Positions 115 to 60,760 of a stretch of DNA of 64,000 nt are shown piece by piece. The translations under genes were made by a program, and so were the position numbers. Each line of letters opens with the position of its first letter. The first letter of the stretch is position 1. The stretch comes from Malacoraja senta (taxonomy: Eukaryota), in contig CM075994.1 of NCBI GenBank assembly GCA_038087875.1, positions 4,404,001-4,468,000 of the forward strand. The letters are read 5' to 3'. Under the pieces are notes generated by a model. It ran no database searches. It was not told where the DNA came from and was given only the letters and a program-made list of their open reading frames with translations.

Positions 115-150
115 AGCGTCAGAAATTAGAAGGCATTCGTAAGAGCATCG
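115..150 (+). CDS. coiled-coil gene micro-exon 1 (36 nt, (E)[11 protein letters not shown])
   Basis: ttttattcacag|AGCGTC...AGCATCG|gtaact; first residue assumes the preceding exon ends in G. Confidence 0.75.
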
Positions 151-855
151 GTAACTACGTCGTCCTGATATTTATTTCCGATTGTTGTGTAAATATTATT
201 TATGTTAAATGATTTGTAGTTTGTTTAGATAGTTTCTATTCTGACGCCAGAGGGATTTTCAATGGGCCAATTTAGAAAATGAGTCTCACTGTTTCCCGCC
301 AAACTTCTTTGAAAGTCATGTTGAATATTGGGTGAACTATCCGAAATATAATCCATACATCCCATCACCTAATATAATGTATTTTCTCCGTCGAGCCTGA
401 CAATGCCTTGTCTTTGGATTATGCTTCCTCCGAGAATTCACATGAGATCCTTCTAAACTTGCAAATGTACAGATCAAATGTGTTATAAAAAAACTAATCT
501 CCAATCTTTACCTCCCGTAGTAGGAACCTACCTTGTCATCTCTGCTGCACTGCCTCAAAGGCAAATATGCCCTCTGGAAGGCGACTCCGGACTGTCAAAG
601 CTGCCACAGCCAGACATAAAAACAATTTTTATCCACGAGTAGTTGCTCTGCTCAACAGCCAAAAATCTGTAGCCTCCCTTTGATCTAGTATTTTGTTGGT
701 TCACATGCTTGATCAATGGTGTTTTATCATTAGTGTTTTATTATTATTAATGTTTAGTCTTTTCTGAGTCATTCGTAGCTGTCACTGTATGTCATGTTGT
801 TACTTGTGGGCGGAGCACCAAGGCTAATTCCTTGTATGTGAATACTTGGCCAATC

Positions 856-891
<36 letters not shown>

Positions 892-1012
892 CACTCACTC
901 ACTCACTCACTCACTCACTCACTCACTCACTCACTCACCCACTCACTCACTCACTCACTCACTCACTCACTCACTCACTCACTCACTCACTCACTCACTT
1001 ACTTACTTACTC

Positions 1013-1071
<59 letters not shown>

Positions 1072-1164
1072 CACTCACTCACTCACTCACTCACTCACTC
1101 ACTCACTCACTCACTCACTCACTCACTCACTCACTCACTCACTCACTTACTTACTTACTTACTC

Positions 1165-1248
<84 letters not shown>

Positions 1249-4200
1249 TCTTATTTACTTAAAAGCCAAAAATAAACCAAGGTATTCCAAATGCAGTGTC
1301 AACCATCTTTGACTCACAGAGAAAGCTGCGGCCAGCTAATACTGTGGACACTGAAATGGAGTGGGGAAGTTGTGTCTGGGCATCTTTCTTGTTGAACCTA
1401 ACTGCGGGGACATCTAATTCTAACCCTGTGCTGTGCGTGTTCGAGATAGGGAAGATTATACTCGATGACGTTGAATTATTGGCACGCTTTCTCTCGGTAC
1501 CCGATGACCAGTCGCAATTTAGTCTTTCCGCTTCAAACAAGTTACATTTAGATTAGTTTAGTTAAGACATACAGCGCGGAAATATGCCCTTCGGCCCACC
1601 GAGTCCGCGCCGACCTGTGATCTTCATATGATTTCTTCTCTGTAAAGCACTTTGGTTTCAACGTGATTTGATTTAAAAGTGCTATATAAATTAAAATTAC
1701 TTAGTTACTTACTTACTTGCTTCGTAAACCGTAGCACCCGGGGAAAACCCAAGTGGTCACAGCAATAATGTACAAACTCCGCACAGACAAGCACCCGCAT
1801 TCAGGATCAAACACGGGTTGCTGGTGCTGGAAGGCAGCAACTCTACCGCTGCACCGCCGTGCCACCCCCCCCCCCCCCCCCCCCACCCCTCCCCCCCCCC
1901 TAAATGAGCTAAATGATTTTTTTTTTAAAGTATGGGACATGATTAGGTTCGTTCTGCACAGTGCATAAACGGTCCATAGGCCATCAGAACATTTTTTTTA
2001 ATTCGAAAGTGTACCTATATATAATTTCACAATAGATCATTATGTGCACCTCTTTTACAGATAAAATAATGCAACGCCAAAGTACAGGTACAGAAATGAT
2101 GAAAGCGTGGAGCGAATTAACAGCGGACGTTATAGTCATTAGAACAGCATTGGGTGCTTAATGGGCCATCCATCTGGGGGTGGCGTGTACCTCGGTCTTG
2201 CCATTTACAAAATAACCCGCATTTGGACAAGTCTTCCTTCATAATATTCCTTCAACCATTGATGCCTACCTTAAAATACGGCAATGACAAGTGTAAATGA
2301 AGCCCCTCACTTGTATGTTCTCTCCAAAGCAAACTCCACCCTGCTTGAAAATGGAACTCCATTGACACTTCATTTCAGCAATTTGTGAATATCTTCAGCT
2401 TGGGATCCTCGATGGTTTAAGATGACTATATCTTCAAGATGATTCGCCACCTATCAACAGCAGTAATGGCCAACCACACCCATATCAGAAAGCCCTTGTG
2501 CAGGAGCAGTTAGAAGTCAACTGCAAAAGCGATGAACTGCAGTTTTACGTACCAAACAAATACATCAGAGTTTCTTCCCATATGACATCGATAACTCAAT
2601 GTGTATAGCATGGTCACAGGTATTGATAATAGTTTACCTTTCCGGTTTATGTACGTTCACTATGCTGTTGAAGCCCTTTAATGTTCAAGGTAATTAGAGC
2701 ATAATTGACATGGATACACATGGATTTACATCCGTTGCTTACACTTGATATGTATCTCCAACAGAAGAGGAACTGATCAGAAAAGATGAAGGTAATATAG
2801 TAAACTGCATTTTTGTCCAGGACTCGCATTAAAAAGCCATCAAGGGTGGCACGGGATAAATTGAAACACATTCATCCGTCTGCACTGCCACCTAGTGTTA
2901 CTTCTCATAATATATAATACTTCTTGAAGCAAACTAAAGTGAACATTTAGAGGCTAGTCAGGCTCCATATTTCGTACACATATCAAGCATCGGGTTTAGT
3001 TTAGTTTAGTTTAGAGATACAGCGCGGTAACAGGCCCTTAGATCCACCGAGTCCGCACCGACCAGCGATCCCCGCACATTAACACTACCCTGCACACACT
3101 GGTGACAATTTTACATTGGAACATTTTAACCAAGCCAATTAACCTACAAACCTGTACGTCTTTGCAGAGTGGGAGGAAAACGGAGATTCCGGAGAAAATC
3201 CACGGTCGTGGGGGGAACGTACATACTCCGTACAGACAAGCATCCGTAATCAGGATCGAGCCTGGGTCTCTGGCGCTGTAAGACAGTAGCTCTACAGTAG
3301 TTCTGCCGCTGTGCCATCGTGCCTCCCCGGATTGTTGAACAGCAGCGGAAAGTTTTGACTGAACATTGGGGGAAAGTATTAGAAACCTTGCTGCTTTGTG
3401 GAAGACTTAAAGCTACTTACCTCGAATAAAGTAATCCAATCTGAATAGTTAGATTCATTTTGCAAATTAAGAAAGTTCTTGCTTTAAAAAATAATTGTTT
3501 GAAATGCCTGTTGCGGGTTTGCAATGAGTCTTTGCAGTGTATGTTTCATTGACTTGTCTGCACAGCAGAACGAGGGAACCCGTTCTTGATTTGCGACAGG
3601 AGTGAAATCTAAAGGACCACGTAGACCCATATATAAGTGATTGTTATATATTTTACCTGCTTCTTCTGGAGGTGGAGTGAATATCAACGTTAATTAACAC
3701 AAATATTTCTTAAGATCTGCTCTTGTGCAGTGATGTTTTCAGATTTATGTTCTAACGGGATCTTTCTCAGTAACGTCCTAGAATTCCATCGCCAATGTTG
3801 CTTGCTTCAGTAACGTGCTCCATTTGAAGGTATCAACCTCTCTTTTGTTGTATCTGTTTCACAGTCAACCTCTGCCTCTGCTTTACCTGTACTCTCATCC
3901 TCCATCAGCGCTTCTTTGTTAGTATAACACAGAGGCATTATCAACCCCTTTAAATTGACATGTACGTTTACGACATTTTACCAGTTTTGACTGATTATGT
4001 ACACTAGAAAGTATGACATATGTTTAGAATGTTCACATTTAAGTTTAACTATGACATCTTTATTCTTCCTCTTAGAACTTGAAAAACTCAGGCTGGCTTT
4101 GAAAGAGAAAGGTCAGAGAATGACGGAAACCTGGTTAAGAGAGGGACAATACTGGCAATTCAATGCTCCAGTTAACACGTGCTGCAGGAGAGACAGAGAT

Positions 4201-7200
4201 GAGGGTAAAAGAGGACGGGGTGTTGCGTTATTGATGATGGTGGATGTCACAGCGGTGATCAAAGATGACATTACAGGACGGTTCGTCTCGTAAACCTATT
4301 TGGGTGGAGCTAAGGAACAAGAACGGAATTATCTAGTCAGGAGAAGGGTCTCGACCCGAAACGTCACCTATTCCTCCTCTCCAGAGAGACTGCCTACCCC
4401 GCTGATTTACTCCAGCATTTTATGTATGTCTAGAAAGGAAAGATCACCTTGATGTGAGTGCACTTTAGGCCCCAAATAGTCAAAGGGAATTAGAAAAGCA
4501 AATACGCCAGAACATTTCAGGCAGTTGTAAGTCTAATAAGATTATGATAGTCGAGGATTTAAACTTTCCCAATATTGACTTGGAATGTCATTGTGCAAAA
4601 GATTCAGACGGGGCGGCATTTGTCAAATGTGTTCAGGAAAGTTTCCTCTCGCAATATATAGAGGGTGCCACACGGGAGAGGGCAATTCTTGATCCAGTCT
4701 TGGGAAACTTGGAGGGGCAAGTGCATGAAGTGTTCGTGGATGATCCCTTTGGGACCAGCGACCACTGTTCCATCAGGTTTCAGATTGTTATGGATAAAGA
4801 CAGGGTGGGCCCACGAGTTAAAATTCTAAATTGCTGCAATGCTAACTTTGAAGGTAGACAAAACTGCTGGAGAAACATAGCGGGTGCAGCAGCATCTATG
4901 GAGCGAAGGAAATAGGCAACGTTTCGGGCCGAAACTCTTCAGGCAGGAACTCTCTCAAGTTGATTGGAGCAGATTGTTCAAAAAGATCGTACACCTGAAG
5001 CACCTCACTATTTGTATTTGATACCCCTTCCAAGCCTATCCCAAAACAGATACGTTGTTCAAAAGGCCATCGCTAGTTAACACCTCTATCCAGGTGACTG
5101 TAGAAAGTCCAACGCGATAGATTTAAGAGAAAGGATTGCCCTATTGCAATATTGTAACCTTTAGGTCCACATGCAGAAATCTTTAAATATTGATGGTGCT
5201 TAAATTTCGAGCGTTACCTCTGTTTATCAATAGAAGTATATGATATTTAAAAATGCATCACCATGTGTTCACGGATTCTTACAAGGAAACTGTTAACTTT
5301 CATTGAGTAATTCTGGGACCCACAATTTTGAAAAATTGCATATGAATTGTAAATAAACCGAGAGCGATGATTTGGAAGAGTGTTTTGATGCTAGGACTTT
5401 GATCAACTTTACTCAGTCTTAAACCAAGCAAAAATGATGTCACAATTGACATTGAAATTTCTGTGATCTTTCCCATCTGTTCAACATTTAGCATCATTTA
5501 TTGTAACTTGTAGTTACTAATTTAAAGTCAACTTTTTGAGATTATGCTTTCCACGCAAGCCAGATAGCTATAAGATGTTGCATTAAATTGCACACATTAT
5601 TGTTCCAGCTAACACATTGGAGAAAAAAGACGAAGGTAAATTATGACATCTTCCCTTTCGTGTTTTACTGGGATTCCAACACGTTTCCAGTTGAACGCAA
5701 TGTTAAACAAATCGCATGCTTAGCGTGAGTGCATAGACAAATTAGCAAGTACGCTGCAGACATAAATACCACGGCCGTAATAAAGCATAATGACAATTTT
5801 TTTGATCAACCATGGACGCTTCGTTTTTGAGCATTGGCTGGTAAGATCCACAAAGAAAGGCGGAGGAATTATTTCTGTAAAGACTGGAAAAAAATCAAAT
5901 AATACAAGGAACAACTTTAATCTCAGCAGGGCGAAGCGGAAAGGGGATATGCGGGACAACATTTTTACACGGAGGGTGGTGAGTGCCTAGAACGCGCTGC
6001 TGGAAGTGGTGTCCATTTTCGGCTATGATGTAAAGACTACGTCTGAATATGGAATACAGTAGAGCCTCCCAATAACGGGTCTATGGGGAGGGGTGGGTGT
6101 CCGTTATTGTCCGCTATAACCGGTTATGGGAGAGTATTGTGTAAGAAGGAACTGCAGGAGCTGATTTAAACCGAACACAGAAACAAAAACCTGGAGTAAC
6201 TCAGTGGGGCAGGCAGCATCTCTTGAGAGAAGGAATGGGTGACATCGAAGAAGGGTCTCGACCCGAAACGTCACCCATTCCTTCTCTCCAGAGATGCTGC
6301 CTGTCCCGCTGGGTTACTCCAGTTTTTTGTGTCTGTCTATTGGAGACAGGCCGGATGGGAGGGGGGGGGGCGGAGGGTCGACGTTAAATCAGCGGGAATC
6401 CACAGACGGGCAGCCGCACAACTCTCGGCCCCACACGCGGTGCAGAAGGGACGACTCCCGGACTCACGCCGCTTTCATGATGCTGGCTGTCTCCGCTCCC
6501 GGAACTGGAAGGAAGCTGCCCCCCGCAAGGCATCAGCTCATTTGGGTATCCTGTCGGAAGAGGGGGGCGGTGCAGCCGTACCATTTTAGTGACGGAAATA
6601 ACACCAACTTACCCTTTCATCCACAGAAATCCAAAACATTAAAAAGTCAGTGCATGATTTAGGTAAGCGAACTATTCAATTAAACAACGTATATTTGAAT
6701 GCATTCCACTTAGCCAACCCCTTTCATAGCCAGTGTGTAGGAAGGAACTGCAGTTGTTGGCAAAGGTACTACAGCAAGAGTTCGAGACCCCTCTTCAGGC
6801 TGATGGGTGAGGTTTCGGGTCGAGACCCTTGCTGAATTACCCCAGCATTTTGTGCCAAGCTCATCTGCCTGTACATGATCCATATCTCCCTTTTCCTGGC
6901 ACTTCCATGTGCCAATCTAAAACCTTATTAAACGCCACTGCCGTATCTGTCTCGTGTACAGGCAGATGGGATCAGTTTAACTTGCCATCGTCTACGGCAT
7001 GGACATTGTGGGCCGAAGCGTCGGTTGCTGCGTTGTGCTGCGCTGTTCTATGTCCATTGTCCGATTTCAGTTACATTGAACTAAATGGAATGAAACTCAA
7101 ACGGATTTTCCAGGTGAGGAAAGGTTCTGCTCTCGAGATTACAGCCCAGAAGGGGAAAACGAAATCCATCCATGCAGTAGAATCCACCAGCAAACGTGCC

Positions 7201-7357
7201 ATGTTATTTCTGTTTTAACCAGAGAACACACTCCGCGATAAAGAATTGGGTAAAAAAAAAGCTTAATCTTTTCATCGGCGATTTGTTATTTCTTATTATA
7301 CTTTTACAAAATACTGTGCCATATCTTTGTCATCGCCAATATGCTTTGTCTGGGTGA

Positions 7358-7412
<55 letters not shown>

Positions 7413-7424
7413 GTAATAATAATA

Positions 7425-7461
<37 letters not shown>

Positions 7462-7463
7462 GA

Positions 7464-7496
<33 letters not shown>

Positions 7497-10400
7497 GTAA
7501 TAATAATTATTATTATAATAGTAATAGGGTTTATTTTCTTTTAGCCACGGCGGAATCCTGTGGCACCTACGGTATGTAAAAAACTAATGAAACATCATTT
7601 TCAATGTTATTTGCGTCTGCGGTCAATCCGCATTAGTTTAGTTTAGAGATGCATTTAGAGATACAGCGCGGAGCGGAAACAGGCCCTTCGATCCAACCGA
7701 GTCCGCTCCGATCAGCGATCTCCGCACATTAACACAAGCCTACACTCGCTAGGGACAATTTACACATACACCAAGCCAATTCACCTGCAAAACTGCCCGC
7801 CTTTGGAGTGTGGGAGGAAACAGAAGATCTCGCACAAAACCCACGCGGTCAATGGGAGAACGTGCACGGAAGAATGAAGAGAACGTTCCTGCAAAGTCTG
7901 CATCGACAAAGTCGGGATCGAACCCGTGTCTCCGGCACTGTATAAAGGCAGCAACTGTACCTCTGCGCCACGGTGCCGCAGCAGCGAGTGTATTGCTAAG
8001 AAACATTTGAAGTTGACTTTTAATACGAACTGAGGAACCAAACGAGAGTTTTGCGCAAGTAGCTTATTTTAAGAATTATCAGCCACCCGAAAGGTCGTCT
8101 GCCCATTCCCTCCATAAATGCTGCCTGACCGCCCGAGTTCTTCCGCACTTTGTGTTTTGCTCAAGATCCCTGTATATAGAGTTACTGTGTCCTCGCTTTT
8201 ATATATTCGCTCAATTCAAAAGCTGCGGCCAATTGCTTTTTGCTACAGTCAACTAGGCACGATACAGAAAATAACAATGTACAAATTATGGGTGGAATGA
8301 GGAATTAATTTCAATTTGCAATCCATCTTAAAATAACTTTTCACAGTACATTTTGAAGTTTGAAATGTTAAGTTATCATGAATTGTTTTTCTTGCAGTAA
8401 GGAAATTGAAAGCTAAGACGTCAGGTAGTAGATTTCATTGTTTTGCCGGTAACTTTCTCATCATAATCATAATCATAATAGTACTTTATTAGCAAAGTAT
8501 GTTTTGCAACATACGAGAGATTTGATTTGCCATACAGTCCTACCATTAAAGAGCAACAAGACACCCAAATACATTTTTAACATGAACATCCACCACAGCG
8601 ACACCCCCACATTCTTCATTATGATGGAAGGCAAAAAAAGTTCAATCTTCTTCCCTTCTTTGTTCTCCCGCGGTCGGGGCACTCGAGACTTCCGTGTTAG
8701 GGGCGATCTTGCCTCCCGCAACCGGCGGTCGAGCACTCCGCATCGGGGCGATCAAGCTCCCGCATCGGAGGGGGGGGGGTCTCAGCTCTCGCGCGCCGGG
8801 CGATCAGACCCCGGGTGGGGGCTGGTCGAATCTTATGCGAATTTGGAGCTTCCTGCCATCAGCCTCTACCCGAGACTGCGAGCTCCTCGATGTTGAAATC
8901 CCCAGGCCGCGGTTGGAGCTTCGATCCCAGGCAAGGGATCCCAGGCTCCGATGGTAAGTCCACGTCCCCGTGGTGGGAATAAAAGTCAGTTCCGAGCAAG
9001 GCCGCCCACTCCATGATGTTAGGTCGCAGAGCGCCGGAGATACGATCTGGAAAACAATCGCATCTCCGGCAAGGTAAGAGACTGAAAAAAGTTCCCCCAG
9101 ACCCCTTCCGTCACCCCCCCCCCCCCCTCCATATAACACAAACCAGAGAACATTAACACATTCTTTTAAAACACACCAAGAATAACAAAAACAATACGAA
9201 AAGACAGACAGACTGTTGGCGAGGCTGCCATCGCTGACTGCGCCACCGTCATTGGATTTTGTGGTTTTGTTGAAATGGAAAATATTTACATTTTTTTTAG
9301 AAATATTTAGAAAATATTTTAAAATGCCAATATTCAGTCTGAAGAAGGGTCTCGACCCGAAACGTCGCCTATTCCTTCTCTCCATAGATGCTGCCACACC
9401 CGCTGAGTTCCTCCAGCATTTTTGTCTACCTTAAATATTTAATTCATGTCGTTTTAAATGTAACATTGTAAAATGGGGATGAACGTGGGCGAGTTGTAAC
9501 TTACTCTGAGACTGGGTGTCACCCATTGTCTGCCTGCAGGGAAAATGAATATATGGTATATGTTACTACGGGATAAGACCATGACCATAAGACATCAGAG
9601 CAGAATTAGGCCATTCTGCCCAACAAGTCCACTTGATCATAAGATCATGGCTGATCTATTCCCTTCTCAACCCCATTCTCCTGCCTTAACTCCATAACTT
9701 TTGACGCCCTTCGTAATCATCAACCTATGAATATACGCTTTTAAAATGCCCAATGTCTTGGCCGCCACAGCCGTCTGAGGCAATGAATTCCACAGATTCA
9801 CCTCTCTCTGCCTAAAGACGTTCGGCCTCATCTTTTTAAAAGTATGTCTTTCATTCAGACGCTATGCCCTCTGGTCCTTGACTCTCCCACGAGTGGAAAC
9901 ATCCTCTCCAAGGCCTTCAACAAAGCCAAATCGCATGGATACATTTTCATGTTCACTGCAATTCCCATTCAAATATTGCTTTTCTAATGTTGATCCAATA
10001 AAATAGCCACTGGACAACAGTGCAAACGCAGTTGTTGGTGGGTTTATGCATGAGCTGCCAAAGGAGGTTGTTCAAGCAGGTAGTATTACATCCTTAAAGA
10101 AACACTTCCATAGGTACATTGATAGGAAAGGCATCGAATGATCGGGGGCAATCGCGGACTAGCTTAGGGGCAACTTGGTTGACATGGACTAGTTGGGCCG
10201 AAGGATGTGTATCAATGCCTTAAGACTCTATGGCTCTTTCAATTATGAAGCACTAACTAGCGCACGTGGTCCCGTCTCATCGGTAAGAGACTGAATTATA
10301 CAGTTTCACATGTTTCTACCTGATACCAGAAGGTTGTTAAGTAAAATGGTCAATGCGTGACCGGAATGAATCAAATCCTTCTCTCCAGAGATGCTACCTG

Positions 10401-13400
10401 TCTCGCTGAGTTACTCCAGCATGTTGTGTCTATTTTCGGAAGAAATCAATTTGTCCGCCTTCATGATTTACTTTCAGAACTCGAAACCCTGACTGAAAAG
10501 CTGGATGAATCCGGTAGGAACCACGTTTAAACACGGTTACTTAAGAATGGTTCGCCTACAGAACGCCAAGGCCTACTTATTTCACTTGTGGACCGAGATG
10601 GCCGTCAGGGAATGTTTACCGACTGGCCCGCTCCAGATTGCAGGAGTACGTGCTGAGGGACGCACTGAAGCTCGGTGCAGCCAACGCCAAGGCTCTGTAG
10701 GGAGGACCACAGTCTAAGGTCCTTCCACTGCTGGACATTGGGGGCAGAGTGCAGATGGGACACCCATCAAACAAGGAAAGGCATATAGCCCCAGGGGCCA
10801 AATGAGTTGCAAGGGTGCCGGGTAAAATGATATTTGTGAACACTACGATGCGACGCAATGAATGAATGTACTGTATAGCCTCCGAGAATTTTTGTTCAAT
10901 TCTTGTTTTGTATGTGTTTTTTTTATTTTAGTTTCGTGGTATAGCGTAGACACAATAATAAATAATACTGAAGCCAATTCACCTACAAACCTGTACGTCT
11001 TTGGAGTGTGGGGGGAAACCGAAGATCTCGGAGAAAACCCGCGCAGGTCACGGGAAGAACGTACAAACTCCGTATGGACAGCACCCGTAGTCAGGATCCT
11101 ACCTGGGTCTCTGGCGCTGTAAGTCAGCAACTCTTCCGCTGCGCCACCGAGCCGCCCCAATTCTGAATTCATATTGAATAAAGTGTATTTTTTATAAAGA
11201 CCTGTGGAATCTCTATTTCAAATATAATACCAGAAATGACATTTCAAAATGCGCCAAATGGTTGTACAAAGTATCCTATTGCAATGGATATTTGACATGG
11301 GTGGAAACGTAAAAGATAGTATGTTATGTCATGACCGTGTCATGTCCGCCACCCCGCGCTCACATTTATTAGGTTTACTACAATTAAATATTCCATTACT
11401 CTGGTGTATTATTCTCTCTGTTAAAGCGTCTAATGTTCTACATTTTTCGTCCAACAGCACGAAATCTAAAGCAGAAAGGCAAAGGTAAACTCACTTCTAA
11501 AGCATAGTTTCATCAACATTTCCTAATTTGTATACCTTTGCATGTAATTCTTTCTGCGGGAAAAGCTGGTTATGATCCCATTTTTGTAAATTGATTGATA
11601 TCTTGTGATATTTAGACTTTGATTCGCATTTGGAAGACGACGGTGAGTAACTGTGGAGAATGTGTGAGTTTGTTGAAGCATTCTGCATAAATTCTCTAAC
11701 TGGATACATGGAATGGAATGTTACCTTTCCTGACCAATGTTGATGCAGCAATTCCATCCCTCCCCGTTAAACGGGACAGAACAAATCGCTGGATGAAACC
11801 GCTGGACACAGGGGCGTATAAATTGCATAGGTAGATAGAAAAATAGAAACGTAGAAAATAGGTGCAGAAGTAGGCCATTCGACCATTCAATATGATCATG
11901 GCTGATCATCGAACTCGGTATCCTGTACCTGCCTTCTCTCCATACCCCCTGATCCCTTTAGCCTCAAGGGCCACATCTAACTCCCGCTTAAATATAGCCA
12001 ATGAACTGGCCTCAACTACCTTCTGTGGCAGAGAATTCCAGAGATTCACCACTCTCTGTGTGAAACATGTTTTTCTCATCTCGTTCCTAAAAGACTTCCC
12101 CCTTATCCTTAAACTGTGACCCCTTGTTCTGGACTTCCCCAACATCGGGAACAATCTTCCTGCATCTAGCCTGTCCAACCCCTTAAGAATTTTGTACGTT
12201 TCTATAAGATCCCCACTGAATCTTCTAAATTCTAGCGAGTACAAGCCGAGTCTATCCAGTCTTTCTTCATATGAAAGTCCCGACATCCCAGGAATCAGTC
12301 TGGTGAACCTTCTCTGTACTCCCTCTGTGGCAAGAATGTCTTTACTCAGATTAGATCGCTATTCCTCTTCATCAGACTCAGTAGAGTCCAGGTAGCCGAT
12401 GAACCGTATAATGAATATTCACCTTGGTAGGGTCCAGTTTGGGTCTGAAGAAAGGTTGCGATCCGAATCGTCACCTATTCCTTTTCTCCAGACATACCGC
12501 CTGACCCGCAGATTTATTTTGTGTCTACCTGCCAAGGTATTTACGGATATTCAACATTCTGAACATAAAGGCCGCGTGATTATTTATATCTTGACACCAT
12601 GCAAACGAGGAGAAATATTAGGAGATATTACTATAATTATGCTGATATTCTTCTCTTTTAAAATCATACAGATGAAAGGATGCAAGAAAGTAAAACTGGT
12701 AATCCATGTTACTTTTATCGCGCAACAAAATGCCCCCCAAAAAATGCCGACAACTGTTGTTTTACAACTCGTCATCGTAGTATGAAATCTAAATACAAAG
12801 TGCTGGAGAAACACTAGCGTTCAAGCAGCATCAGTGGCGCGTATTGTCAGACGACGCTTCGGGTCGGGAATCTTCTCCTAATTCTTCTGTGGACTGAGCA
12901 ATTGAAACGGCGTCTGTCTATTTCCCTCCACGGATGCTGCCCGGCCCGCTGAGTTCCTCCGGCACTTTGTGTTTTGCTCTGGATTCGATCATCTGCAGCT
13001 CATAAGTTCATAATTAGTTCATAAATGATAGAAGATGAATTAGGCCATTAGGCCCATCAAGTCTACTCCGCCATTCAATCATGGCTGATCCCTACAAATC
13101 CCATTATCTTGCTTTCTCGCCATAACCCCTGACACCCATACCAATCAAGAATCTATCTGTCTCTGCCTTAAATACATCCCTCGACTTGCCCGTCAATGGG
13201 AATGAATCCCACAAATTCATCACCCTCTGACTAAAGAAATCCCTCCGCATCTGCTTCCGAAAGGATCCTCCTTTAATTTTGAAGCTATGCCCTCTGGTCC
13301 TAGACTCTCTCACTGGTGGAAACGTCCTCTCCACATCCACTCCACAGGCCTTTCATTGCAGTTCCTTGCGTCTTGTATGAAATCAGAATAGCAGTAAATC

Positions 13401-16400
13401 ACAGGCCGTCGGTTTCGAGGGTGATAAGGGGTGATTTAAGGATAAGGGCCGAGATGAGAAAAAAAATTCACACAGAGTGTGGTGAATCTGTAGCATTCTC
13501 TGCCACAGAAAGTAGTTGAGGCCAGTTCATTGGCTATATTTAAGAGGGAGTTAGATGTGGCCCTTGTGGCTATAGGGATCAGGGGGTATGGAGAGAAGGC
13601 AGGTACAGGATACTGAGTTGGATGATCAGCCATGATCATATTGAATGGCGGTGCAGGCTCGAAGGGTCGAATGGCCTACTCCTGCACCTATTTTCTATGT
13701 TTCTATGTTTCTATGTTTCTATAAGCCTCTGGAAACTAAACTGAATGTGATGTACAACTCATATAAAATATATCTGTTTGTTTTAGAACTCCAGAGATTG
13801 ACAGCCATTAGAGATGATGTGGGTAAGGGAAAAAACACTGTACCATTTTTATTTCCAACTATATTCTTTGGAAATACAAAACAGAATGTGCTGGGAACGT
13901 TTAGTTTAACTTAGTTCAATTTATTATTGTTACATGTACCGAGGTACAGTGAAAAGTATTTATTTTGTGTGCTATCCCGTCAAACAAAAACATACACATT
14001 ATTAGAATCAAGCCTTCCACTGTGCACAGTTGAAAGATAAAGGGCACAGCAATCCGTTAAAGATAGTCGGACGGATTAGGGCAGCACAGTGGCGTGGCGG
14101 GAGCGTTGCTGCCTTTCAACGCCAGAGACCGGGTTCGATCCTGACTACGGGTGCTGTCTGTACGGAGTTTTACGTTCTCCCTGTGACCGCGTGGTTTTCT
14201 CCTGGTGCCCCAGTTTCCCCCCACACTCCAAAGGTTAATTTGTTTCGGTTAATTGTGCAATTGTCCCTGGTGTGTGTAGGTTAGTGTAGTCGGCGCGGTC
14301 TCGGTGGGCTAAAGGGCCTGTTTCCGCGCTGTATCTCTAAAGTTAATAGTATATCAAATTGACGTCGGATAATGTCCAATTAATGTCCACATAATTCAAA
14401 GGTCTCCAATGATGTAGATGGGAGGTAGACAAAAATGCTGGAGAAACTCAGCGGGTGAGGCAGCATCTATGGAGCGAAAGAATAGGTGACGTTTCGGGTC
14501 GTGACCCTTCTTCAGACTGATGTGGGGGTGGAGGGGCGGGAACAAGAAAGGAAGAGGCAGAGACAGTGGGCCGTGAGAGAGATGGGAATGGGAGGGGAAG
14601 GAGGGAGAATGCAAGGAATACCTGAAATTGGAGTAGTCAATGTTCATACCGCTGGGGTGTAAACTACCCAAGCAAAATATGAGGTGCTGCTCCTCCAATT
14701 TGCGGTGGGACTCACTCTGGCCATGGAGGAGGCCCAGGTCGGATTCGGAATGGGAGGGGGAGTTGAAGTGTTGAGCCACCGGGAGATCAGGTTGGTTAAT
14801 GCGAACTGCGCGGAGGTGTTGGGCGAAGCGATTGCCAAGCCTGCGCTTGGTCTCATCGATGTAAAGCAGTTAGGTCAGTTCCGCACTCTAGCTGTTGAGA
14901 TGACTGTTCTGTTGCTTGATCGGGCAGCACCTGCGGAGAGGGAAGCAAAGGCAATGTTTTAGGCAGTCAAGGAGTCACGCTGATTGCCCTCGGCAAACTT
15001 GATTTCCGTTTGAAACTTTAAATCTGTTGCTTCTCCACACAAACTGACAGTGTGGTACGTTCTGATTCCCAACGTGCATTTTTTTTTTCATTGAACTTCA
15101 ATTATATTCGGCAGAGTTCAAATTCTGTTCCTATTCCAAAGAAACCATTAATCTCCTGTTTAAATGACTACCGTCCTGTCGCACTGACATCAGTCATCAT
15201 GAAGTGCTTCGAGCGGCTAGTCAAAACTCACATCTGCTCCTCTCTCCCTGACACCTTGGACCCTCTTCAGTTTGCGTATAGACCAAACAGGGCCACGGAC
15301 GATGCCATCGCCATGGCAACTCACACTGCGCTCACCCACCTGGAGAAAGGGAATACATATGTGAGAATGCTCTTCGTTGACTACAGCTCGGCATTCAAAA
15401 CTATCATTCCCTCAAAACTCATCCCCAAGCTCTTAGAACTTGGACTGGAGACCTCCATCTGCGGCTGGATATTTGACTTCCTGATGGGCAGGCCCCAGGT
15501 GGTGAGAATTGGCAGCCACGCCTCTTCCTCACTGATCCTCAACACAGGCGCACCACAGGACTGTGTGCTCAGGCCTCTCCTGTACTCCCTGTTCACCCAC
15601 GACTGTACTGCTAAGCACAGCTCAAACATCATCTTAAAGTTTGCTGACGACACGACCATCCTGGGCCTCATCACAGACAATAATGAGACGGCCTACAGAG
15701 AGGAGATAAAGGCACTAAACAGCTGGTGCCATGAAAATAACCTCTCTCTCAATGTGAGCAAAACTAAAGAGATGATCGTGGACTAGAAGAGACAGCAGGG
15801 GAATGGTCACCTCCCCATCCACATCGGTGATGCTGAGGTTGAAAGGGTCAGCAGCTTCAAGTTCCTCGGTGTGTGCACATCACTGAGGACCTCTCTTGGA
15901 CACTGCACACGGACACAATAACTAAGAAAGCCCGCCAGCGGCTCTTTTTCCTGAGAAGACTGAGGAAGTTTGGCATGAACGCCAGCATCCTCACAAACAT
16001 CTACAGTTACACCATCGAGAGCCTGCTGACGGGCTACATCACAGTCTGGTACGGGAACTGTTCTGCCCACAGCCGCAAATCACTAGAAAGTGGTGAAGGC
16101 GGCACAGCACATCACTGGCAACTGTCTCCCGGCTATTCAGGACATTTTCCACCGGCGGTGCCTGCGGAAGGTACACAGCATCATCAAGGACCACAGCCAC
16201 CCTGCACACAGACCGTTCTCCTTGTTACCGTCAGGCAGACGAGACAGGAGCATGGCTGCACGTACCACTAGACTTAAGAACAGCTTTTATCATCATGCCA
16301 TCAGGCTTCTGCACTCATAAACACATCATATATGTTGTTGTTTTTATTTATTATTGTCTTTTACCTACCAATGTCACTTTTATCTTATCTTTTTTTACCT

Positions 16401-19400
16401 TAATTTTATCCTTGTAATATCATTGCTGAGGTGACCCGTTGTCTTGTCAAAAACATTTCATTGTACCGTTGACCCTGTGTTAACCTACATATGACAAATA
16501 TAACTGAACTGAACTGAACTAAAGTTTGGCAGTAATGTTAACTTGGATGTTCGACGGTAATGTCACGCACACCGTCCATTTCTCCCTTATGAAAACCTCC
16601 ACAAATGTATTTTCTTTTACCACAGTGAACCTATTGACATTAAAAAATGAAGGTAATCCATCTGTCACTAGTTGAAGGTGTGTCACATGCTAGTCTGTGT
16701 ATATGAAGGGGGTGGGGATAATTTTTCAAAAACCGGGAATATTACGTTGGATTTCTGCTCTGTAACCAGCACAGCTCTGAAATACAACAATGTTCGGGTG
16801 GTACAGTGGTGCGCAGTAGAGTTGCTGCATTACAGCGCCAGAGACCCGGGTTCGATCCTGACTGTGGGTGCTGTCTGTACGGAATTTGTACGTTCTCCCC
16901 GTGCCCGCGTGGGTTTCCTCCGGGTGCTTCGATTTATGCCCACATTCCAAAGACCTACGAACTTGTAATAATAATAATAATACATTTTATTTATATAGCG
17001 CTTTTCAAAGACTCAAAGTCGCTTTACATTAAGAGTAAAAAAAAATAGAGCAGTAAGACAGAGATGCAAAGGGGAGGGGGACATGGGACTAAGGGTATGC
17101 AGAGGTGAAGAGTTTCGGATCAGTTGTGGGAGGGAATTCCAGAGCCTGGGAGCTGCCCTGGAGAAGGCTCTGCCTCCAAAAGTGCAGAGGTTTGATTTCG
17201 GAGTGGAGAGGAGACCAGCTGATGTGGATCTGAGGGACCGTGAGGGTTGGTAGGGGGAGAGGAGATCAGTGAGATAAGGGGGGGGGCAACTGGTTGAGGG
17301 CTTTGTAGGTGAGGACCAGGATTTTGTAGATGATCCGGTGGGAAATGGGAAGCCAGTGAAGTTCTTTGAGAACTGGGGTGATGTGGTGCCAGGGTTTGGT
17401 GTGGGTAATGAGTCGGGCGGCAGCGTTCTGGACCGGTTGGAGTCGGTTGATGTTGCTGGAATTGATGCCAAAGAGAAGAGAGTTACAGTACTCCAGTCGG
17501 GAGGAGATGAAGGCATGGATGAGTCTTTTAGCAGCGGGGGGTGTGAGAGAGGATCTGATTTTGGCAATGTTGCGGAGGTGAAAAAATGATGTTTTGACAA
17601 CATGGCGTATGTGAGGCTCAAGGGAGAGGGTTGAGTCAAAGATCACGCCAAGGTTGCGGGCCTGAGGAGATGGGGAGACAGTGGTGCCGTCAATAGTGAG
17701 AGTGGGGTTGTGAATTTTCGTGAGTGTTGATTTGGAGCCAATGAGGAGAAATTCTGTTTTGTTACTGTTTTGTTGGTTAATTGGCCTCTCTAAATGACCC
17801 CAGGTGTGTAGGGAGTGGATGCGAATGTGGATAACAGGGAACTACCGTGTAAGTGATCGATGGTCGGCGCGGAATCTGTGGGCCGAAGGGCCTCTTTCCG
17901 CGTTGTACCTCTAAACGAAACGAAACTAATTATCATTTGACGAGCACCTTGCTTCCAACATGTTCCACCCTTATCTCAAACGCCCAGCATTATTTGTGTT
18001 CCACGAGATTCTTTGGCTCCACGGTGTAAAATAAGGGGAAAAACAACAATTCTAAACCATACGTGATAGTATGTTGTAAGAAGGAACTGCAGTTGCTGGT
18101 TTAAACCGAAGATAGACACAAAAAGCTGGGGTAACTCATCGGGACTGGCAGCAACTTTGGAGAGAAGGAATGGGTAACGTTTCGGGTCGACACCCTTCTT
18201 CAGACCCCAAAAAAGAAGGGTCTCGACCTGAAACGTCATCCATTCCTTCTCTCCAGAGATATTGCCCGTCCCGCTGAGTTACTCCAGCATTTTGTGTCTA
18301 TCTTGTGATAGTACTCTATAGTACAGCTCCGTGAAAATACTTTTATTTTTAAACGAAGGCATTTAATAATCCTCTCCATTCCTTTAGAACTCAGAAGACT
18401 TCATAAAAATTGTAGTGAGTGTTGAAAGATTATACACCTATATTAATTTCACGTCGTCACGTACACTTCAAGTTACCGAGTCAATTATTGAGAACAGTCT
18501 TACTAAAAAGGTGTCGCGCAGTCGAGATCGCAAAGCGGTTTGTAATTCTTTGGCGCAACGTTGAAGACTTGGGTTCTTAATCATTGGATAATTGGTCACG
18601 GGTATGACACATGTCCAATTAACTAGGACCAATTTTGCAGCCCAAATTATATATCGTACCTATATTTAACTCATCGCCACCTTAAGTTGTTCAGCCGGTC
18701 AGACTGCATTCTTGGAGAAAAATGATGGGTGACGTTTCCGGTCTGAACCCTTCCTCAGACCCGAAACGTCATCCATCATTTTTCCCCAGAGATGTTGCCT
18801 GACCCGTTGAGTTAGTCCAGGACGTTGTGTCTCTTGCTGCAATCCCTTCCTACATACCTAAAGTCGTTCCTTAGCTATTCCGGAATCTATTAGTTTCATC
18901 CAAATGAAGAAAGGTGTTTTCACAATGGTTGCATAAGATTTCCGTTTCCTTTTAATCTGCCCACGTGGCTCAACGTAGAATCTGCTAACGGAATCAGAAC
19001 TGTGAAATGTAACGGTCCACTTTCGTTGCCCGGAAGGGCCGAAGCCCAGCACACCTAGCACATCTATCGTGTAAAATAGGCACAAAAAAACTGGAGTAAC
19101 TCAGCGGGTCAGACAGCATCTCTGGAGAAATGGAATAGGTCACGATTCGGGTTGTGACCCTTCTTCAGATTGAGATTCAGGGGAAAGGGAAACGATAGAT
19201 ATAGACGGTGATGTAGAGAGATAGAGAACAAATGCATGAAAGAGATGCAATTGGGTAACGATGATAAAGTGAACAGGCCATTGTTAGCTATGGGCTAGGT
19301 GACAACGAGTTACAGGCAATGAGACTCAACAGGTCGACTTGTAGCTAGTACAAGGACTTGGGTGCGGGAGGGACAGAGAGTGGGGGGATGCAAGGGTTAC

Positions 19401-21076
19401 TTGTAGTTAGAGAAATGAATGTTCATACCGCTGGGTTGTAAGCTACCCAAGCGAAATATGCGGTGCTGATCCTCCAAGTTGCGTCGGGCCCCACTCTGAC
19501 AATGGAGGAGGCCCAGTTCGGAAATGGGAGGGGAAATTAATGTGTTTGGCAACCGGTAGATCAGGTAGGCCCAGGCACACACACATACACATGTGTAAGT
19601 TATAAAGTGCTTGCAACGTTATGACCCCAACAACCAACCAATTTATGAGTTTTTTCATCAATGTCATTACCACAGGGATGATAGAAGGAGACAAATACAG
19701 CGTAAGTGACTTGGAAATTGTTATTGGGCAAATATTGTTCAGATAAATAAAAATCACAAGTGATAACATTCACCTTATTGAAAGGTTGCAACAATTGCAT
19801 TTGATATCTGGGGTTATCTATTTTTCTAACAAATATTTGGAGGGTAAATTGTACTAGTGAAATATAATTTTAGCCACTGGGCTAGTTGTGAAGAAATCTG
19901 TCCAGTTTATAACAAAATAAATCTTCACATTCCCGCCACTGTGCCAGGACCCTGGGTAAGCATATATTCAGAACTACCCCCTTTGCTATTCAATGCATCT
20001 CCGTTACTCCGCCTCTCAGCTCCTGCCTTGAACGCACCCCAACATTCACTACGACTTTGCAAATGCTTCTGCCTCAACTCCCATCCATTTTTCATCTTAA
20101 CCTCACCTAAATATAATATTCAATTCCTGCGTGTTTTAAATAGGTCTGAAGAAGGGTCTCGACCCGAAACGTCACCCACTCCTTCTCTCCAGAGATGCTG
20201 CCCTTCCCGCTGAGCTACTCCAGCATTTTGTGTGTATCTTCGTGTTTTAAATAGGTATATCTGACAATGATTGTGCAGAAAATGATGCCAAGTTAAACTA
20301 ATCTTCTCTGCCTGTATGTGATCCATATCCCTCAATTTTCTGCATATCTATGTGCCTATCTAAAAGCCTCTTAAATACTACCAGCGTCTCTGCCTCCACC
20401 AACAACCCTGACAACGCAAGTGGTCAACCTATTTAAATTTAAAACAAAGACCACTTATTTACAAACTGGAGCGTTCTCCACATTAACGACAAAAATCCTC
20501 TCTCAAGATAAATACGTATAGCACGGGGCCCACACGGTGGCACAGCGGTCGAGTTGCTGCCTTTTACAGCGCCGGAGTCCCGGCTTCGATCCTGGCTTCG
20601 GGATCTGTCTCTTTTGAGTTTGTATGTTCTCCCCGTGGATTTTCTCCGAGAACTTAGATTTCCTCCCACAGTCCAAAGACGTGCAGGTTTGTAGGTTATG
20701 AAATCGTAAAATGTTCCTAATGTAGGATAGTGTTAATGTGTGGGGATCACAGGTCCTTCTCTCCAGAGATGCTTCCTGTCCCGCTGAGTTACACCCGCGT
20801 TTTGTGTATGTCTTCTGTATTAAAGCCAATCTGCCTGTCACCTGCATGAATGTAAGTCCTGGTGTTGGAGCAGGTAACACTGGAAAATTCCTGCTGCATT
20901 CCCATTGTCAAAACGGTAACGTTGACGCCTTTGGACCATTTTCGTTTAAACACATTATTTGGCGAGATGGCCCCCGGAGAATGAAATGTGTCCTCGTCTC
21001 CCGCTGTCACGCGTGTTAAAATTCCATCTTTACTTGTTTTCCAGAGTTGAATGATTCACGAGGCGCCAACATCTAG
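115..21076 (+). CDS. 3' portion (5' end outside window) of a multi-micro-exon gene encoding a long heptad coiled coil; candidate BG/butyrophilin-like cytoplasmic tail
   Basis: 15 exons of exactly 36 or 27 nt, each bounded by AG and GT and all phase 1-1, splice without a stop to [160 protein letters not shown]. Family assignment is inference. Confidence 0.8.
857..1246. repeat. compound tetranucleotide microsatellite (TTAC)n/(TCAC)n
   Basis: direct inspection; explains the LLTY/SLTH pseudo-ORFs. Confidence 0.98.
2061..2087 (+). CDS. micro-exon 2 (27 nt, DKIMQRQST)
   Basis: ctcttttacag|ATAAAA...AGTACAG|gtacag; similar to micro-exon 12. Confidence 0.75.
4076..4111 (+). CDS. micro-exon 3 (36 nt, [12 protein letters not shown])
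   Basis: ttcttcctcttag|AACTTG...GAGAAAG|gtcaga. Confidence 0.8.
4120..4980 (+). mobile_element. decayed CR1 LINE ORF2 endonuclease fragment, interrupted by Penelope pLTR pieces
   Basis: [35 protein letters not shown] motifs. Confidence 0.8.
5609..5635 (+). CDS. micro-exon 4 (27 nt, ANTLEKKDE)
   Basis: ttattgttccag|CTAACA...GACGAAG|gtaaat. Confidence 0.8.
6627..6662 (+). CDS. micro-exon 5 (36 nt, [12 protein letters not shown])
   Basis: ctttcatccacag|AAATCC...GATTTAG|gtaagc. Confidence 0.8.
   Translation, partial: KSKTLKSQCMI
7223..7249 (+). CDS. micro-exon 6 (27 nt, ENTLRDKEL)
   Basis: tctgttttaaccag|AGAACA...GAATTGG|gtaaaa; similar to micro-exon 4. Confidence 0.75.
7358..7526. repeat. 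(AAT)n microsatellite
   Basis: direct inspection. Confidence 0.97.
7545..7571 (+). CDS. micro-exon 7 (27 nt, ATAESCGTY)
   Basis: ttattttcttttag|CCACGG...ACCTACG|gtatgt. Confidence 0.7.
8398..8424 (+). CDS. micro-exon 8 (27 nt, VRKLKAKTS)
   Basis: tgtttttcttgcag|TAAGGA...ACGTCAG|gtagta. Confidence 0.7.
8461..9250 (-). mobile_element. non-autonomous retroelement-like insertion with (ATGATT)n tail
   Basis: AATAAA plus short tandem tail on the - strand, GC-rich body, no recognisable ORF; family not determined. Confidence 0.5.
10478..10513 (+). CDS. micro-exon 9 (36 nt, [12 protein letters not shown])
   Basis: tttactttcag|AACTCG...GAATCCG|gtagga. Confidence 0.8.
11458..11484 (+). CDS. micro-exon 10 (27 nt, ARNLKQKGK)
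   Basis: tttttcgtccaacag|CACGAA...GGCAAAG|gtaaac. Confidence 0.75.
11616..11642 (+). CDS. micro-exon 11 (27 nt, DFDSHLEDD)
   Basis: gtgatatttag|ACTTTG...GACGACG|gtgagt. Confidence 0.7.
11838..12352 (-). mobile_element. CR1 LINE 3' end
   Basis: [17 protein letters not shown]...SRTRGHSL...[12 protein letters not shown]; (TTTCTATG)-type tail. Confidence 0.92.
12672..12698 (+). CDS. micro-exon 12 (27 nt, DERMQESKT)
   Basis: ctcttttaaaatcatacag|ATGAAA...AAAACTG|gtaatc. Confidence 0.75.
13787..13822 (+). CDS. micro-exon 13 (36 nt, [12 protein letters not shown])
   Basis: ctgtttgttttag|AACTCC...GATGTGG|gtaagg. Confidence 0.8.
14424..14868 (-). mobile_element. Penelope-like element 3' end: GIY-YIG C-terminus plus pseudo-LTR with hammerhead motif
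   Basis: [10 protein letters not shown]...[21 protein letters not shown] followed by CTGAAGAAGGGTCACGACCCGAAACGTC; related remnants at ~19080-19580(-), 24480-24900(-), 48995-49120(+). Confidence 0.8.
15120..16520 (+). mobile_element. 5'-truncated Rex1/Babar-type LINE (RT domain, disrupted)
   Basis: [42 protein letters not shown]; premature stop and frameshifts; (ACTGA)n tail. Confidence 0.9.
16626..16652 (+). CDS. micro-exon 14 (27 nt, VNLLTLKNE)
   Basis: ttttcttttaccacag|TGAACC...AATGAAG|gtaatc. Confidence 0.8.
16967..17770 (-). mobile_element. L2 LINE 3' end
   Basis: [11 protein letters not shown]...[15 protein letters not shown]...[14 protein letters not shown]2-type terminus with (ATT)n tail. 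Confidence 0.88.
18172..18207 (-). ncRNA. minimal type-I hammerhead ribozyme motif (Penelope pLTR), well-formed copy
   Basis: GGGT-CTGAAGA-A-GGGT(GTCG)ACCC-GAAAC-GTT^ACCC: stem I, core, stem II, palindromic stem III. Confidence 0.6.
18388..18414 (+). CDS. micro-exon 15 (27 nt, ELRRLHKNC)
   Basis: ctccattcctttag|AACTCA...AATTGTA|gtgagt. Confidence 0.8.
20143..20176 (+). ncRNA. minimal type-I hammerhead ribozyme motif (Penelope pLTR)
   Basis: GGT-CTGAAGA-A-GGGTCTCGACCC-GAAAC-GTC^ACC; insertion flanked by a 16-bp direct repeat. Confidence 0.6.
21045..21076 (+). CDS. putative terminal coding exon ([10 protein letters not shown]) followed by AT-rich 3' UTR
   Basis: strong acceptor ctttacttgttttccag|AG; in-frame TAG at 21074-21076; AATAAA at 21262 and 21299. 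Confidence 0.55.
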
Positions 21077-21261
21077 GTCAAGACCGTTGATCGAAAATCT
21101 AACCATTAACTCCTCAGTTTCAATGTTTAAGAGTAATATTTACAGCTTGGTTGTCCTTTCCGTTTCCATGTTATAACTGTGGCTGAATATAAAATTAAAA
21201 AATCAAAATACGAATCAAAGAAGCATACTTTCTGACTCAAACTGTACAATACAGGCGCACA

Positions 21262-21304
21262 AATAAATGCTTATCGTGTTGAAATTATCCCTTCCACGAA
21301 TAAA
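21262..21304 (+). terminator. candidate polyadenylation signals of the coiled-coil gene
   Basis: AATAAA at 21262-21267 and 21299-21304, about 190-230 nt after the stop. Confidence 0.45.
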
Positions 21305-38545: not shown

Positions 38546-38863
38546 GTTTACTACCACTGCCTGGTCCTTGGGGACCCAATGGAGCTGAAGTCACAGAGGG
38601 CCCAGCGCCTGTACAGCCACCTACGGCACCCTGTCTTCCTGGAGTTCTTGGTCGTGCTGTGGCTGGTGCCCAGCCTGTCCCTCGACCGCCTGCTGCTGTC
38701 CGCCACCTTCACCCTCTACCTGGTCCTTGGCCACGGCCTGGACCAGCAGGACTACCGCTACCTGCGGGCGCAGCTGGACAAGAAGTTCGAAATCTTCTCC
38801 CGAGAGGAGACGTCCTTCACCAACTCTGCCCCGCGCAACGGGGTGGGCGAGCACCGGGAGTAG
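38546..38863 (+). CDS. NRM: nurim exon 4 (to stop); total 282 aa
   Basis: cccacag|[16 protein letters not shown]...HLRHPV...DRLLL...[15 protein letters not shown]...TAG. Confidence 0.95.
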
Positions 38864-60072: not shown

Positions 60073-60655
60073 TAAGTCTATTCTGCTGCTCAATCATGAC
60101 TGATCTATCTTTCCATTTCAACCCCATTCTCTTGCCTTCTCCCCATAACCCCTGATGCCCTTACTAATGAAGAATCTATCAACCTCCACCCCAGAGCCTT
60201 CTGTGCCAAAGAATTCCACAGTTCATCACCCGCTGGCTAAAGAAATTCCTCTGTATCTTTCTAAACGTACGTCTTTTTACTCTGAGGCTGTGCCCTCTGG
60301 TCCAAGACTCTCGCACTAGTGGAAACATCCTCTCCACATCCACTCTATCCAGGCTTTTCACTGTTCAATCCTGACTGCGGGTGCTTGTGTGCATGGAGTC
60401 TGCCCATTCACCCTGTGACCACGTGGGTTTTCCCCGAGAACGTCCGCTTCCTCTTAAGCTCCAAAGACCTACAGGTCTGTACTTTAATTGGCTTGGTATA
60501 AATGTAAGTTGTCCCTAGTGTGTGTAGGACAGTGTTAATATTCGGGGTCGCAGGGGACTCGGGGGGGGGGGGGGGGGGGGGCAATGGCCTGTTTCCACAC
60601 TGTATCTCTAAATTAAACTAAACACCACAGAGCAAGAGAGGTAACACACACACAC

Positions 60656-60760
60656 CTGCAAGGAAATATCGTTGATCTGAACATCGTCAGTGCTCCATTT
60701 GCCAAAGAGCTTGATCTCTGGTGTCTCCGTGACCGCAGGCACGTTTTCCCACTCGGTCAT
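60656..60760 (-). CDS. RPS5: 40S ribosomal protein S5, first coding exon
   Basis: [35 protein letters not shown]|gtgtgt; acceptor AG one base before the ATG implies an upstream non-coding exon. Confidence 0.97.

Follow-up and report, generated by a model that had tools for sequence, protein, structure and literature searches.

The DNA considered here is a window of 64,000 nucleotides (nt) from Malacoraja senta (assembly GCA_038087875.1), which spans positions 4,404,001–4,468,000 of the forward strand of contig CM075994.1, termed C18 below. Window positions equal C18 positions minus 4,404,000, and negative positions lie upstream of the window. The window carries the 3′ end of gene C, a protein-coding gene that is the third of at least three tandem micro-exon genes. 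Sixteen micro-exons are found in it, 11 of 27 nt and five of 36 nt, all bounded by AG and GT and all of phase 1-1; 15 of them have G as the last base. Splicing these by script gives a product of 159 amino acids without stops in the phase-1 frame, and the other two frames show 13 and 19 stops. An initial annotation had proposed a hidden coding gene of 15 such symmetric exons (ten of 27 nt and five of 36 nt), 14 of which end in G. All the positions, AG...GT boundaries and phases that it gave were confirmed, as was the stop-free frame. The number of 36-nt exons is also correct, but there are eleven 27-nt exons, and the pattern of a terminal G holds with 15 of 16.

By an untrained splice score, positions 1–21100 hold 15 open candidates of 27 or 36 nt, versus 0.25 ± 0.52 (maximum 2) in 100 local shuffles; there are none on the minus strand and one in the other 43 kb of the window. 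Within the range of 21–45 nt, 11 candidates are of 27 nt, five are of 36 nt and any other length is represented by 0–2.

The same exon types were traced upstream to about −761,000 over the 830 kb of contig walked. The resulting array comprises ~310 micro-exons in 770 kb and lies between RBM4B and NRM–RPS5. With repeats masked and the untrained score, the plus strand of the array displays 142 candidates of 27 nt, 64 of 36 nt and 38 of 24 nt, versus 8, 9 and 9 for the minus strand; each of the remaining lengths from 12 to 60 nt gives 2–15 candidates. Only one of the 142 candidates of 27 nt contains a stop in phase 1, versus 68 and 69 in the other phases; for the 64 candidates of 36 nt, the numbers are three versus 53 and 31. 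Coding selection on the micro-exons is clear. A model trained on the array exons called 327 exons, or 314 after removal of one copy of a duplicated block (170 of 27 nt, 76 of 36 nt, 31 of 24 nt and 10 of 21 nt), and the raw candidates at its threshold number 370 on the plus versus 16 on the minus strand.

The array consists of at least three tandem genes, B1, B2 and C, and the gene order on C18 is A1, A2, RBM4B, B1, B2, C, NRM and RPS5. An RBM4B-like gene on the minus strand at C18:3.604 Mb forms the 5′ bound of the B1-B2-C array. B1 begins near −761,421 and ends with an exon behind a strong acceptor at −495,987, which reads RL-stop and is followed by poly(A) signals. B2 starts at −480,885 with CA-ATG-GCA, encoding MAAPSDQY..., and a paralogue, A2, at C18:3,228,901 has an acceptor and first nine residues (MAAPSDQYI...) identical to those of this start exon. 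The end of B2 is at −223,715 (PIEDTRS-stop), and the upstream A2 ends in an aligned exon with the same TAG. There are 96 called exons in B1 and 135 in B2, and the genes span 160–270 kb. A single giant gene of 770 kb was considered and rejected because the array contains stop exons in its interior and a Met exon that is conserved. A de novo scan for terminal exons is too noisy to count genes alone, and more boundaries inside B1 or B2 are possible.

Gene C extends over C18:4,262,327–4,425,076, or window positions −141,673 to +21,076 (~163 kb). It consists of a 132-nt start exon at −141,673, whose ATG has a G at −3 and +4, ~92 phase-1 micro-exons, for the most part of 27, 36 and 24 nt, and finally a short exon with the stop. 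The model has 91 micro-exons after the start exon and encodes 918 amino acids with no stops and a median intron of 1,175 nt. Seven of 99 candidates (two of 132 nt and one each of 54, 36, 24, 21 and 18 nt) were dropped by hand as weak, repeat-derived or too near a neighbouring exon, and one of 27 nt was added. An extra 36-nt exon at −37,262 was predicted from the local repeat pattern and then found, which brings gene C to ~92 micro-exons and ~930 predicted amino acids. Of the 93 coding exons, 91 are 15–36 nt in length and phase 1-1. The product of ~150 amino acids foreseen by the initial annotation is thus far too short, as the array continues far upstream.

The array has grown as blocks of exon plus intron were duplicated in tandem. 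In gene C, positions −50,825 to −31,002 contain a 36+27-nt pair in six recent tandem copies; these show growth in three-heptad steps, and they establish as a real unit the 36+27-nt combination that had been noted as equal to three heptads. In paralogous exons, AG and GT are kept in 17 of 17 pairs, with flanks that are 78% identical. Two exon-shaped patterns, searched throughout the 1.94-Gb genome, gave 31 and 20 matches versus 7 and 0 with reversed controls. The matches cluster at C18 3.14–6.08 Mb, on both strands, and at 15.4–18.3 Mb of a second contig, C5. The regions sampled contain colinear paralogues at C18:5.61–5.63 Mb and 27/36-nt exons on C5.

The predicted gene C product contains 15% E, 14% L and 12% K, with five Pro and no Trp, and its hydrophobic periodicity peaks at 3.5 residues. 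Over 84 residues, the signal at period 3.5 has a power of 63.6, versus 21.9 ± 5.6 in exon-order shuffles, none of 200 of which reach it. The values are 72.5 versus 23.1 for B1 and 49.5 versus 22.9 for B2, with 0 of 300 shuffles in each case. The register signal is independent of exon calling because the exon model used composition and not order. Exon order carries the heptad period in all three genes, and the heptad coiled coil read from the window exons by the initial annotation is borne out. Hydrophobic residues in the 36-nt exons are at positions 2, 5 and 9 (82%, 86% and 71%), and in the 27-nt exons at position 4 (60%). A hendecad periodicity was rejected; power at 3.67 is not above that of shuffles at W = 84. 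The most hydrophobic 19-mer of the gene C product has a Kyte-Doolittle value of 0.57 (0.44 within the first 40 residues), and the product is therefore without a signal peptide or transmembrane (TM) segment.

The exons encode 9, 12 or 8 residues, not 7. As their order carries the register, skipping preserves it only for groups of exons that sum to 7n residues; by arithmetic, skipping of one 9- or 12-residue exon keeps the frame and shifts the heptad register. The earlier proposal that exon skipping could tune the length of the tail therefore stands with respect to the frame, but a single skip breaks the register. This has a bearing on whether the genes might act as diversity generators in the manner of schistosome micro-exon genes (MEGs), where combinatorial exon skipping would produce a pool of variant proteins. 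The symmetric internal exons, most of which have E or D at the junction (64 of 92 in gene C), would allow any skip to keep the frame, and the schistosome MEGs described in PMC4350168 work by such skipping. Nearly all coding sequence is in very small symmetric exons in both systems. However, MEGs are flatworm genes whose products are secreted or membrane-anchored and varied by splicing, and all MEG products described there have signal peptides (PMC4350168), whereas the present genes are from a vertebrate, the gene C product has no signal peptide and the register is fixed. Free skipping would break the long-range register held by exon order in three genes, and a diversity generator is improbable.

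The initial annotation had taken the exons to be the tail of a receptor similar to chicken BG or to butyrophilin (BTN). The tiny phase-1 heptad exons, the split-codon phase of BG and a neighbourhood that, by synteny, is probably of the major histocompatibility complex (MHC) type agree with this, but the immunoglobulin (Ig)-TM head does not. The upstream scan for signal, Ig and TM exons found none. No Ig families were detected by Pfam in 150 plus-strand open reading frames (ORFs) of at least 55 amino acids before B1 and gene C (mostly-repeat ORFs left out), nor in all 77 ORFs of at least 50 amino acids in the gap-free B1-B2 interval; both scans yielded transposon domains and a few sub-threshold matches. 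Pfam did miss fragments of NRM and RPS5, which other tools identified. Ig regular-expression scans of the upstream sequence gave no credible match, and neither V-set nor C2-set_2 was found on C18 among the 150 of 1517 and 150 of 289 candidates scored, respectively. On the 3′ side, no B30.2-like ORF of at least 110 amino acids was seen by eye between the stop exon at 21045 and NRM, and no PRY domain was found in C18 3.14–4.43 Mb among the 150 of 686 candidates scored. A golgin-like C-terminal TM anchor is also absent from the stop exons, which are short and polar in C, B2 and A2 and read RL-stop in phase 1 in B1. As no Ig, TM, signal or B30.2 exon was found, the reading as a BG/butyrophilin receptor fails.

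A true BG/BTN-like membrane receptor could still be present if its Ig and TM exons were missed because they are too divergent, shorter than 50 codons or lost in the assembly. The 5′ region of gene C contains an assembly gap and a duplication of 51 kb (see below), a gap interrupts the 5′ paralogue at C18:5.613 Mb, the start of B1 is not settled, and the last exon of B1 has a hydrophobic reading in another phase with a weak match to TUNAR (E 1.5e-4, below the cut-off). Yet the B1-B2 interval is free of gaps and none of its 77 ORFs is an Ig ORF, a conserved and polar Met exon opens A2 and B2, and the other three stop exons are polar. The negative V-set and C2-set_2 result on C18 points weakly in the same direction. 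A missed head is quite improbable. The hydrophobic reading of the last B1 exon, which in phase 1 ends as RL-stop, comprises ~50 residues ending in a hydrophobic run; it is probably a T-rich untranslated region (UTR), and a tail-anchored isoform may arise from it.

In exon logic the family works like a BG tail, yet it is not BG or butyrophilin by the features tested. Chicken BG genes, as described in PMC4046983, PMC5938342 and PMC8813856, have signal, IgV and TM exons and 13–36 tail exons of 21 nt (also 18 and 24 nt), one heptad each. The likenesses to these accounts are a heptad coiled coil from many tiny phase-1 exons, a tandem cluster on one strand, a probable MHC-type location and the lack of B30.2. 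The differences are that the family here has no Ig or TM exon found, has 90–135 exons of 27, 36 and 24 nt per gene in genes of 160–270 kb, and has a register that depends on exon order, unlike the one-heptad exons of BG. The 21-nt unit of BG does not apply here, with ten exons of 21 nt among 314. Heptad exons are also a feature of butyrophilins, and several cartilaginous fish have BTN genes on their MHC chromosome (PMC12841164; PMC8813856). Butyrophilins as described there need IgV-IgC-TM plus a short run of heptads and, as a rule, B30.2 (PMC12841164; PMC8813856), but none of these domains was found here.

Two neighbours in the window that are outside the family serve, besides RBM4B, as synteny anchors. 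A coding exon of nurim (NRM) lies at 38540..38863 on the plus strand and matches a nurim-like protein of a skate with 97% identity (E 1e-61); a coding exon of RPS5 at 60647..60760 on the minus strand matches the PDB entry for 40S ribosomal protein S5 (E 3e-13). In mammals, TSBP1-BTNL2 is near PBX2/NOTCH4. Mammalian TSBP1/C6orf10 is an MHC gene of many very small exons (about 21 nt, a size unconfirmed in papers) beside NOTCH4/BTNL2 and is expressed in testis; it is a single gene, far smaller than the array genes. At least 32 exon labels for TSBP1 appear in PMC8248358. According to supplementary tables of PMC10751288, rps5 lies next to NRM on the MHC chromosome in each of three elasmobranchs. 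These tables show 961,633 bp without a listed gene beyond NRM in sawfish (NC_067438.1:7.516–8.477 Mb), followed by RBM4B-like genes, and this blank is 0.28–0.41 Mb from PBX2/NOTCH4; in white shark, 1,829,377 bp beyond NRM are without a listed gene (NC_054485.1:92.35–94.18 Mb; PMC10751288 supplement). The catshark entries include seven tandem plus-strand LOC genes of 177–1,177 kb, the last of which ends 9.7 kb before NRM (LOC119976524, LOC119976526, LOC119976528, LOC119975528, LOC119976764, LOC119975529 and LOC119975530; PMC10751288 supplement). In reedfish, phostensin-like and dhx16 closely flank nrm, and one long uncharacterised model overlaps many genes (PMC10751288 supplement). The searched passages of the main text of PMC10751288 do not mention NRM or the NRM-side block, and the seven catshark identifiers are not named in the text of the papers searched.

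The catshark LOC genes share place, strand (that of NRM) and scale with the array, as known from coordinates alone. Judged from position, they may be orthologous to it, and if so, these gene models would imply transcription. The family has no description in the literature searched (most subscription journals being outside its scope), and catshark gene models probably exist already under automatic names. The best explanation of the neighbours is that the gene C family would sit in the class I-framework region of the elasmobranch MHC. The family is a candidate for what fills the longest stretches that seem to be without genes in the MHC tables published for elasmobranchs (0.96 Mb for sawfish and 1.83 Mb for white shark), and it shows that annotation of vertebrate genomes can miss whole multigene families whose exons do not exceed 36 nt.

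This location, together with the exon phase, raises the possibility of an immune role. The rods would then be headless derivatives of a B7/BTN or TRIM gene linked to the MHC, having arisen from its phase-1 heptad exons, and as soluble proteins they would pair with BTN/TRIM coiled coils or act as decoys for them. The exon phase is the same as that given for BG tails (PMC5938342), a tandem cluster in one orientation with copy-number change is also described for BG (PMC8813856), many PRY domains are present on C18, and the sawfish blank is near PBX2/NOTCH4. A precedent for a BG tail acting as a soluble protein is the zipper protein, which regulates actin-myosin interaction (PMC4046983). However, single-exon queries showed no sequence homology to BTN, BG or TRIM; exon lengths are 27, 36 and 24 nt versus 21 nt, sometimes 18 or 24; convergence can yield phase-1 symmetry and heptads; and the nearest PRY, among the 150 of 686 candidates scored, is at C18:4,559,072, past NRM and RPS5. 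Such a derivation is unlikely. The family as such has a bearing on the origin of BG-type micro-exon tails.

The reading preferred here is that the genes are spliced constitutively and encode soluble coiled-coil rods, two-stranded and with a short polar head, which would have a structural role in a restricted cell type. This is probable but by no means certain. Constitutive splicing would yield soluble proteins of 0.9–1.3k amino acids, each with a polar head of ~40 residues and an almost continuous two-stranded rod. The standard rise of a coiled-coil residue is 0.148 nm, at which the gene C rod would be about 130 nm in length. The rods might act as a structural filament, a spacer or a cytoskeleton-binding rod, comparable to the soluble BG-tail 'zipper protein'. 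The 9-, 12- and 8-residue exons would serve as building blocks, with changes in length by blocks of 7n residues (27+36 nt or 27+27+27+24 nt). As to the cell type, the first guess is germ cells, though the grounds are weak: CRE-like (cyclic AMP response element-like) promoter motifs, rapid turnover of copies, the lack of the family in two annotations and the longitudinal columns of sperm. Elasmobranch sperm carries accessory longitudinal columns, and the word 'protein' is absent from the available text of the paper describing them (PMC11856307).

A bolder version joins these elements. It envisages, on the MHC chromosome of sharks and rays, a block of 1–4 Mb with undescribed giant genes of ~90 to >130 micro-exons each, encoding soluble rods of 130–190 nm by a fixed-order 9/12/8 code; the family would be a headless offshoot of the BG/butyrophilin/TSBP1 lineage, missing from two of three reference annotations and devoted to a lineage-specific structure such as the sperm longitudinal columns. 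Taken as a whole, this version is doubtful. The rod genes offer natural tests of coiled-coil register as a constraint on exon-block duplication and of the splicing of at least 90 consecutive micro-exons with introns of ~1.2 kb.

Several points weigh against functional rod genes in this location. The dN/dS ratio (nonsynonymous to synonymous substitution) of 0.44 over 15 gap-free paralogous exon pairs represents moderate constraint only, and the pairs were selected by alignability. The automatic B2 model holds one stop, no paralogue was found to confirm the gene C start exon, and the first coding exon of B1 was looked for and none was settled on. The 5′ part of gene C is within a tandem duplication of 51,360 bp with 99.84% identity across a 200-N gap; this duplication, at C18:4,183,673–4,286,536, copies the gene C promoter, start exon and first ~13 micro-exons, and is probably false, an assembly artefact. 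The 88 MHC class I matches in the assembly are on other contigs, with none on C18 or C5, and for this reason the MHC linkage is by synteny only. No protein record was obtained with two start-exon queries (word searches covered proteins up to 2000 amino acids). The 43-residue start exon of gene C found nothing as a protein query, phmmer returning two unrelated repeat proteins and the ESM Atlas only hypothetical bacterial 43-mers, under 0.9; a profile search with the A2/B2 start exon also found nothing.

The individual exons of the window, all on the plus strand, begin with a 36-nt phase-1 exon at 115..150, whose best same-length match is the paralogous exon at −311109 (25/36 nt). It is followed by 27-nt exons at 2061..2087 (KIMQRQST, trained-model score 20.5) and 2765..2791 (EELIRKDE, 21/27 nt to the paralogous exon at −307555), a 36-nt exon at 4076..4111, a 27-nt exon at 5609..5635 (NTLEKKDE) and a 36-nt exon at 6627..6662 (26/36 nt to the paralogous exon at −306939). 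Next are 27-nt exons at 7223..7249 (NTLRDKEL), at 7545..7571 (TAESCGTY), a non-heptad linker and the weakest of the window set with a trained-model score of 12.6, and at 8398..8424 (RKLKAKTS). A 36-nt exon at 10478..10513 precedes three 27-nt exons, at 11458..11484 (RNLKQKGK), 11616..11642 (FDSHLEDD, of a recurrent 'LDxHxKxD' class) and 12672..12698 (ERMQESKT). The last 36-nt exon is at 13787..13822, and the last two of 27 nt are at 16626..16652 (NLLTLKNE) and 18388..18414 (LRRLHKNC); the latter is the single one ending in A and shares 22/27 nt with the paralogous exon at −271211. A 26-nt AG..GT candidate at 19676..19701 is non-symmetric and uncertain, and its use would change the last ~10 residues only. 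The terminal exon, with coding part LNDSRGANI-stop, is at 21045..21076 (stop TAG at 21074–21076) and as a DNA search query matched itself only; no RNA data set was listed as containing it, a result that is neutral with respect to expression. A putative 3′ UTR at 21077..21304, predicted from the sequence, has AATAAA at 21262 and 21299.

Contigs of a related organism span three of the window exons. Among 40 of 1131 difference rows, from a comparison dominated by repeats, the listed exonic changes are one R>K in the exon at 8398..8424, covered by that organism's contig, and one silent change in the exon at 10478..10513. Gene C might have died recently within a family that was functional in the past, as suggested by the lack of a protein record with the start-exon queries, the off-length 26-nt candidate near the 3′ end and the last ~25 exons of B2, which follow the homologous segment and are without a counterpart in gene C. 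The complete absence of stops from 918 residues, the conservative or silent nature of the two listed changes and the recent register-keeping duplications inside gene C speak against decay, and a dead copy is very improbable.

Some additional features accompany the array. A 24-nt exon at −350 to −327 displays very strong splice sites and non-heptad content (ICIGSMT); it has no counterpart in the paralogous B2 segment and is a candidate alternative or new exon. In B1, −562,000 to −518,900 contains a recent internal duplication of a block of ~9 exons (MDKHVQLD twice, identical). A candidate promoter with GC box, CRE-like and YY1-like motifs and a first-exon donor lie ~3 kb upstream of the gene C start exon, and a CRE-like and a TATA motif are found before B1, the motifs at both places being read by eye and without a control; when the B1 promoter region served as a DNA query, matches to a repeat swamped the result. 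A long interspersed nuclear element (LINE) reverse-transcriptase ORF of 752 amino acids is located upstream of gene C, and hAT-, LINE- and Pao-type elements are between RBM4B and B1.

Two assembly gaps of 200 N are 3′ of gene C, at window positions 27207–27406 and 49124–49323. At C18:3,547,488–3,602,296, a duplication of 26.5 kb with 99.67% identity lies across another 200-N gap and includes most of the RBM4B-like gene; its artefact pattern is the same as that of the 51,360-bp duplication. At C18:5,586,000–5,634,000, minus-strand mid-gene exons are found beside plus-strand 5′-type exons, with a gap at 5,612,743, and this arrangement is an inversion or a misjoin in a further paralogue. Many PRY domains at C18:4.56 Mb and 6.5–11.6 Mb are consistent with a TRIM/BTN cluster. 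Arrays of 27/36-nt exons form a second cluster at C5:15.4–18.3 Mb, where they occupy both strands of a contig of 83 Mb, and such arrays are also found on contigs C4004 and C4444.

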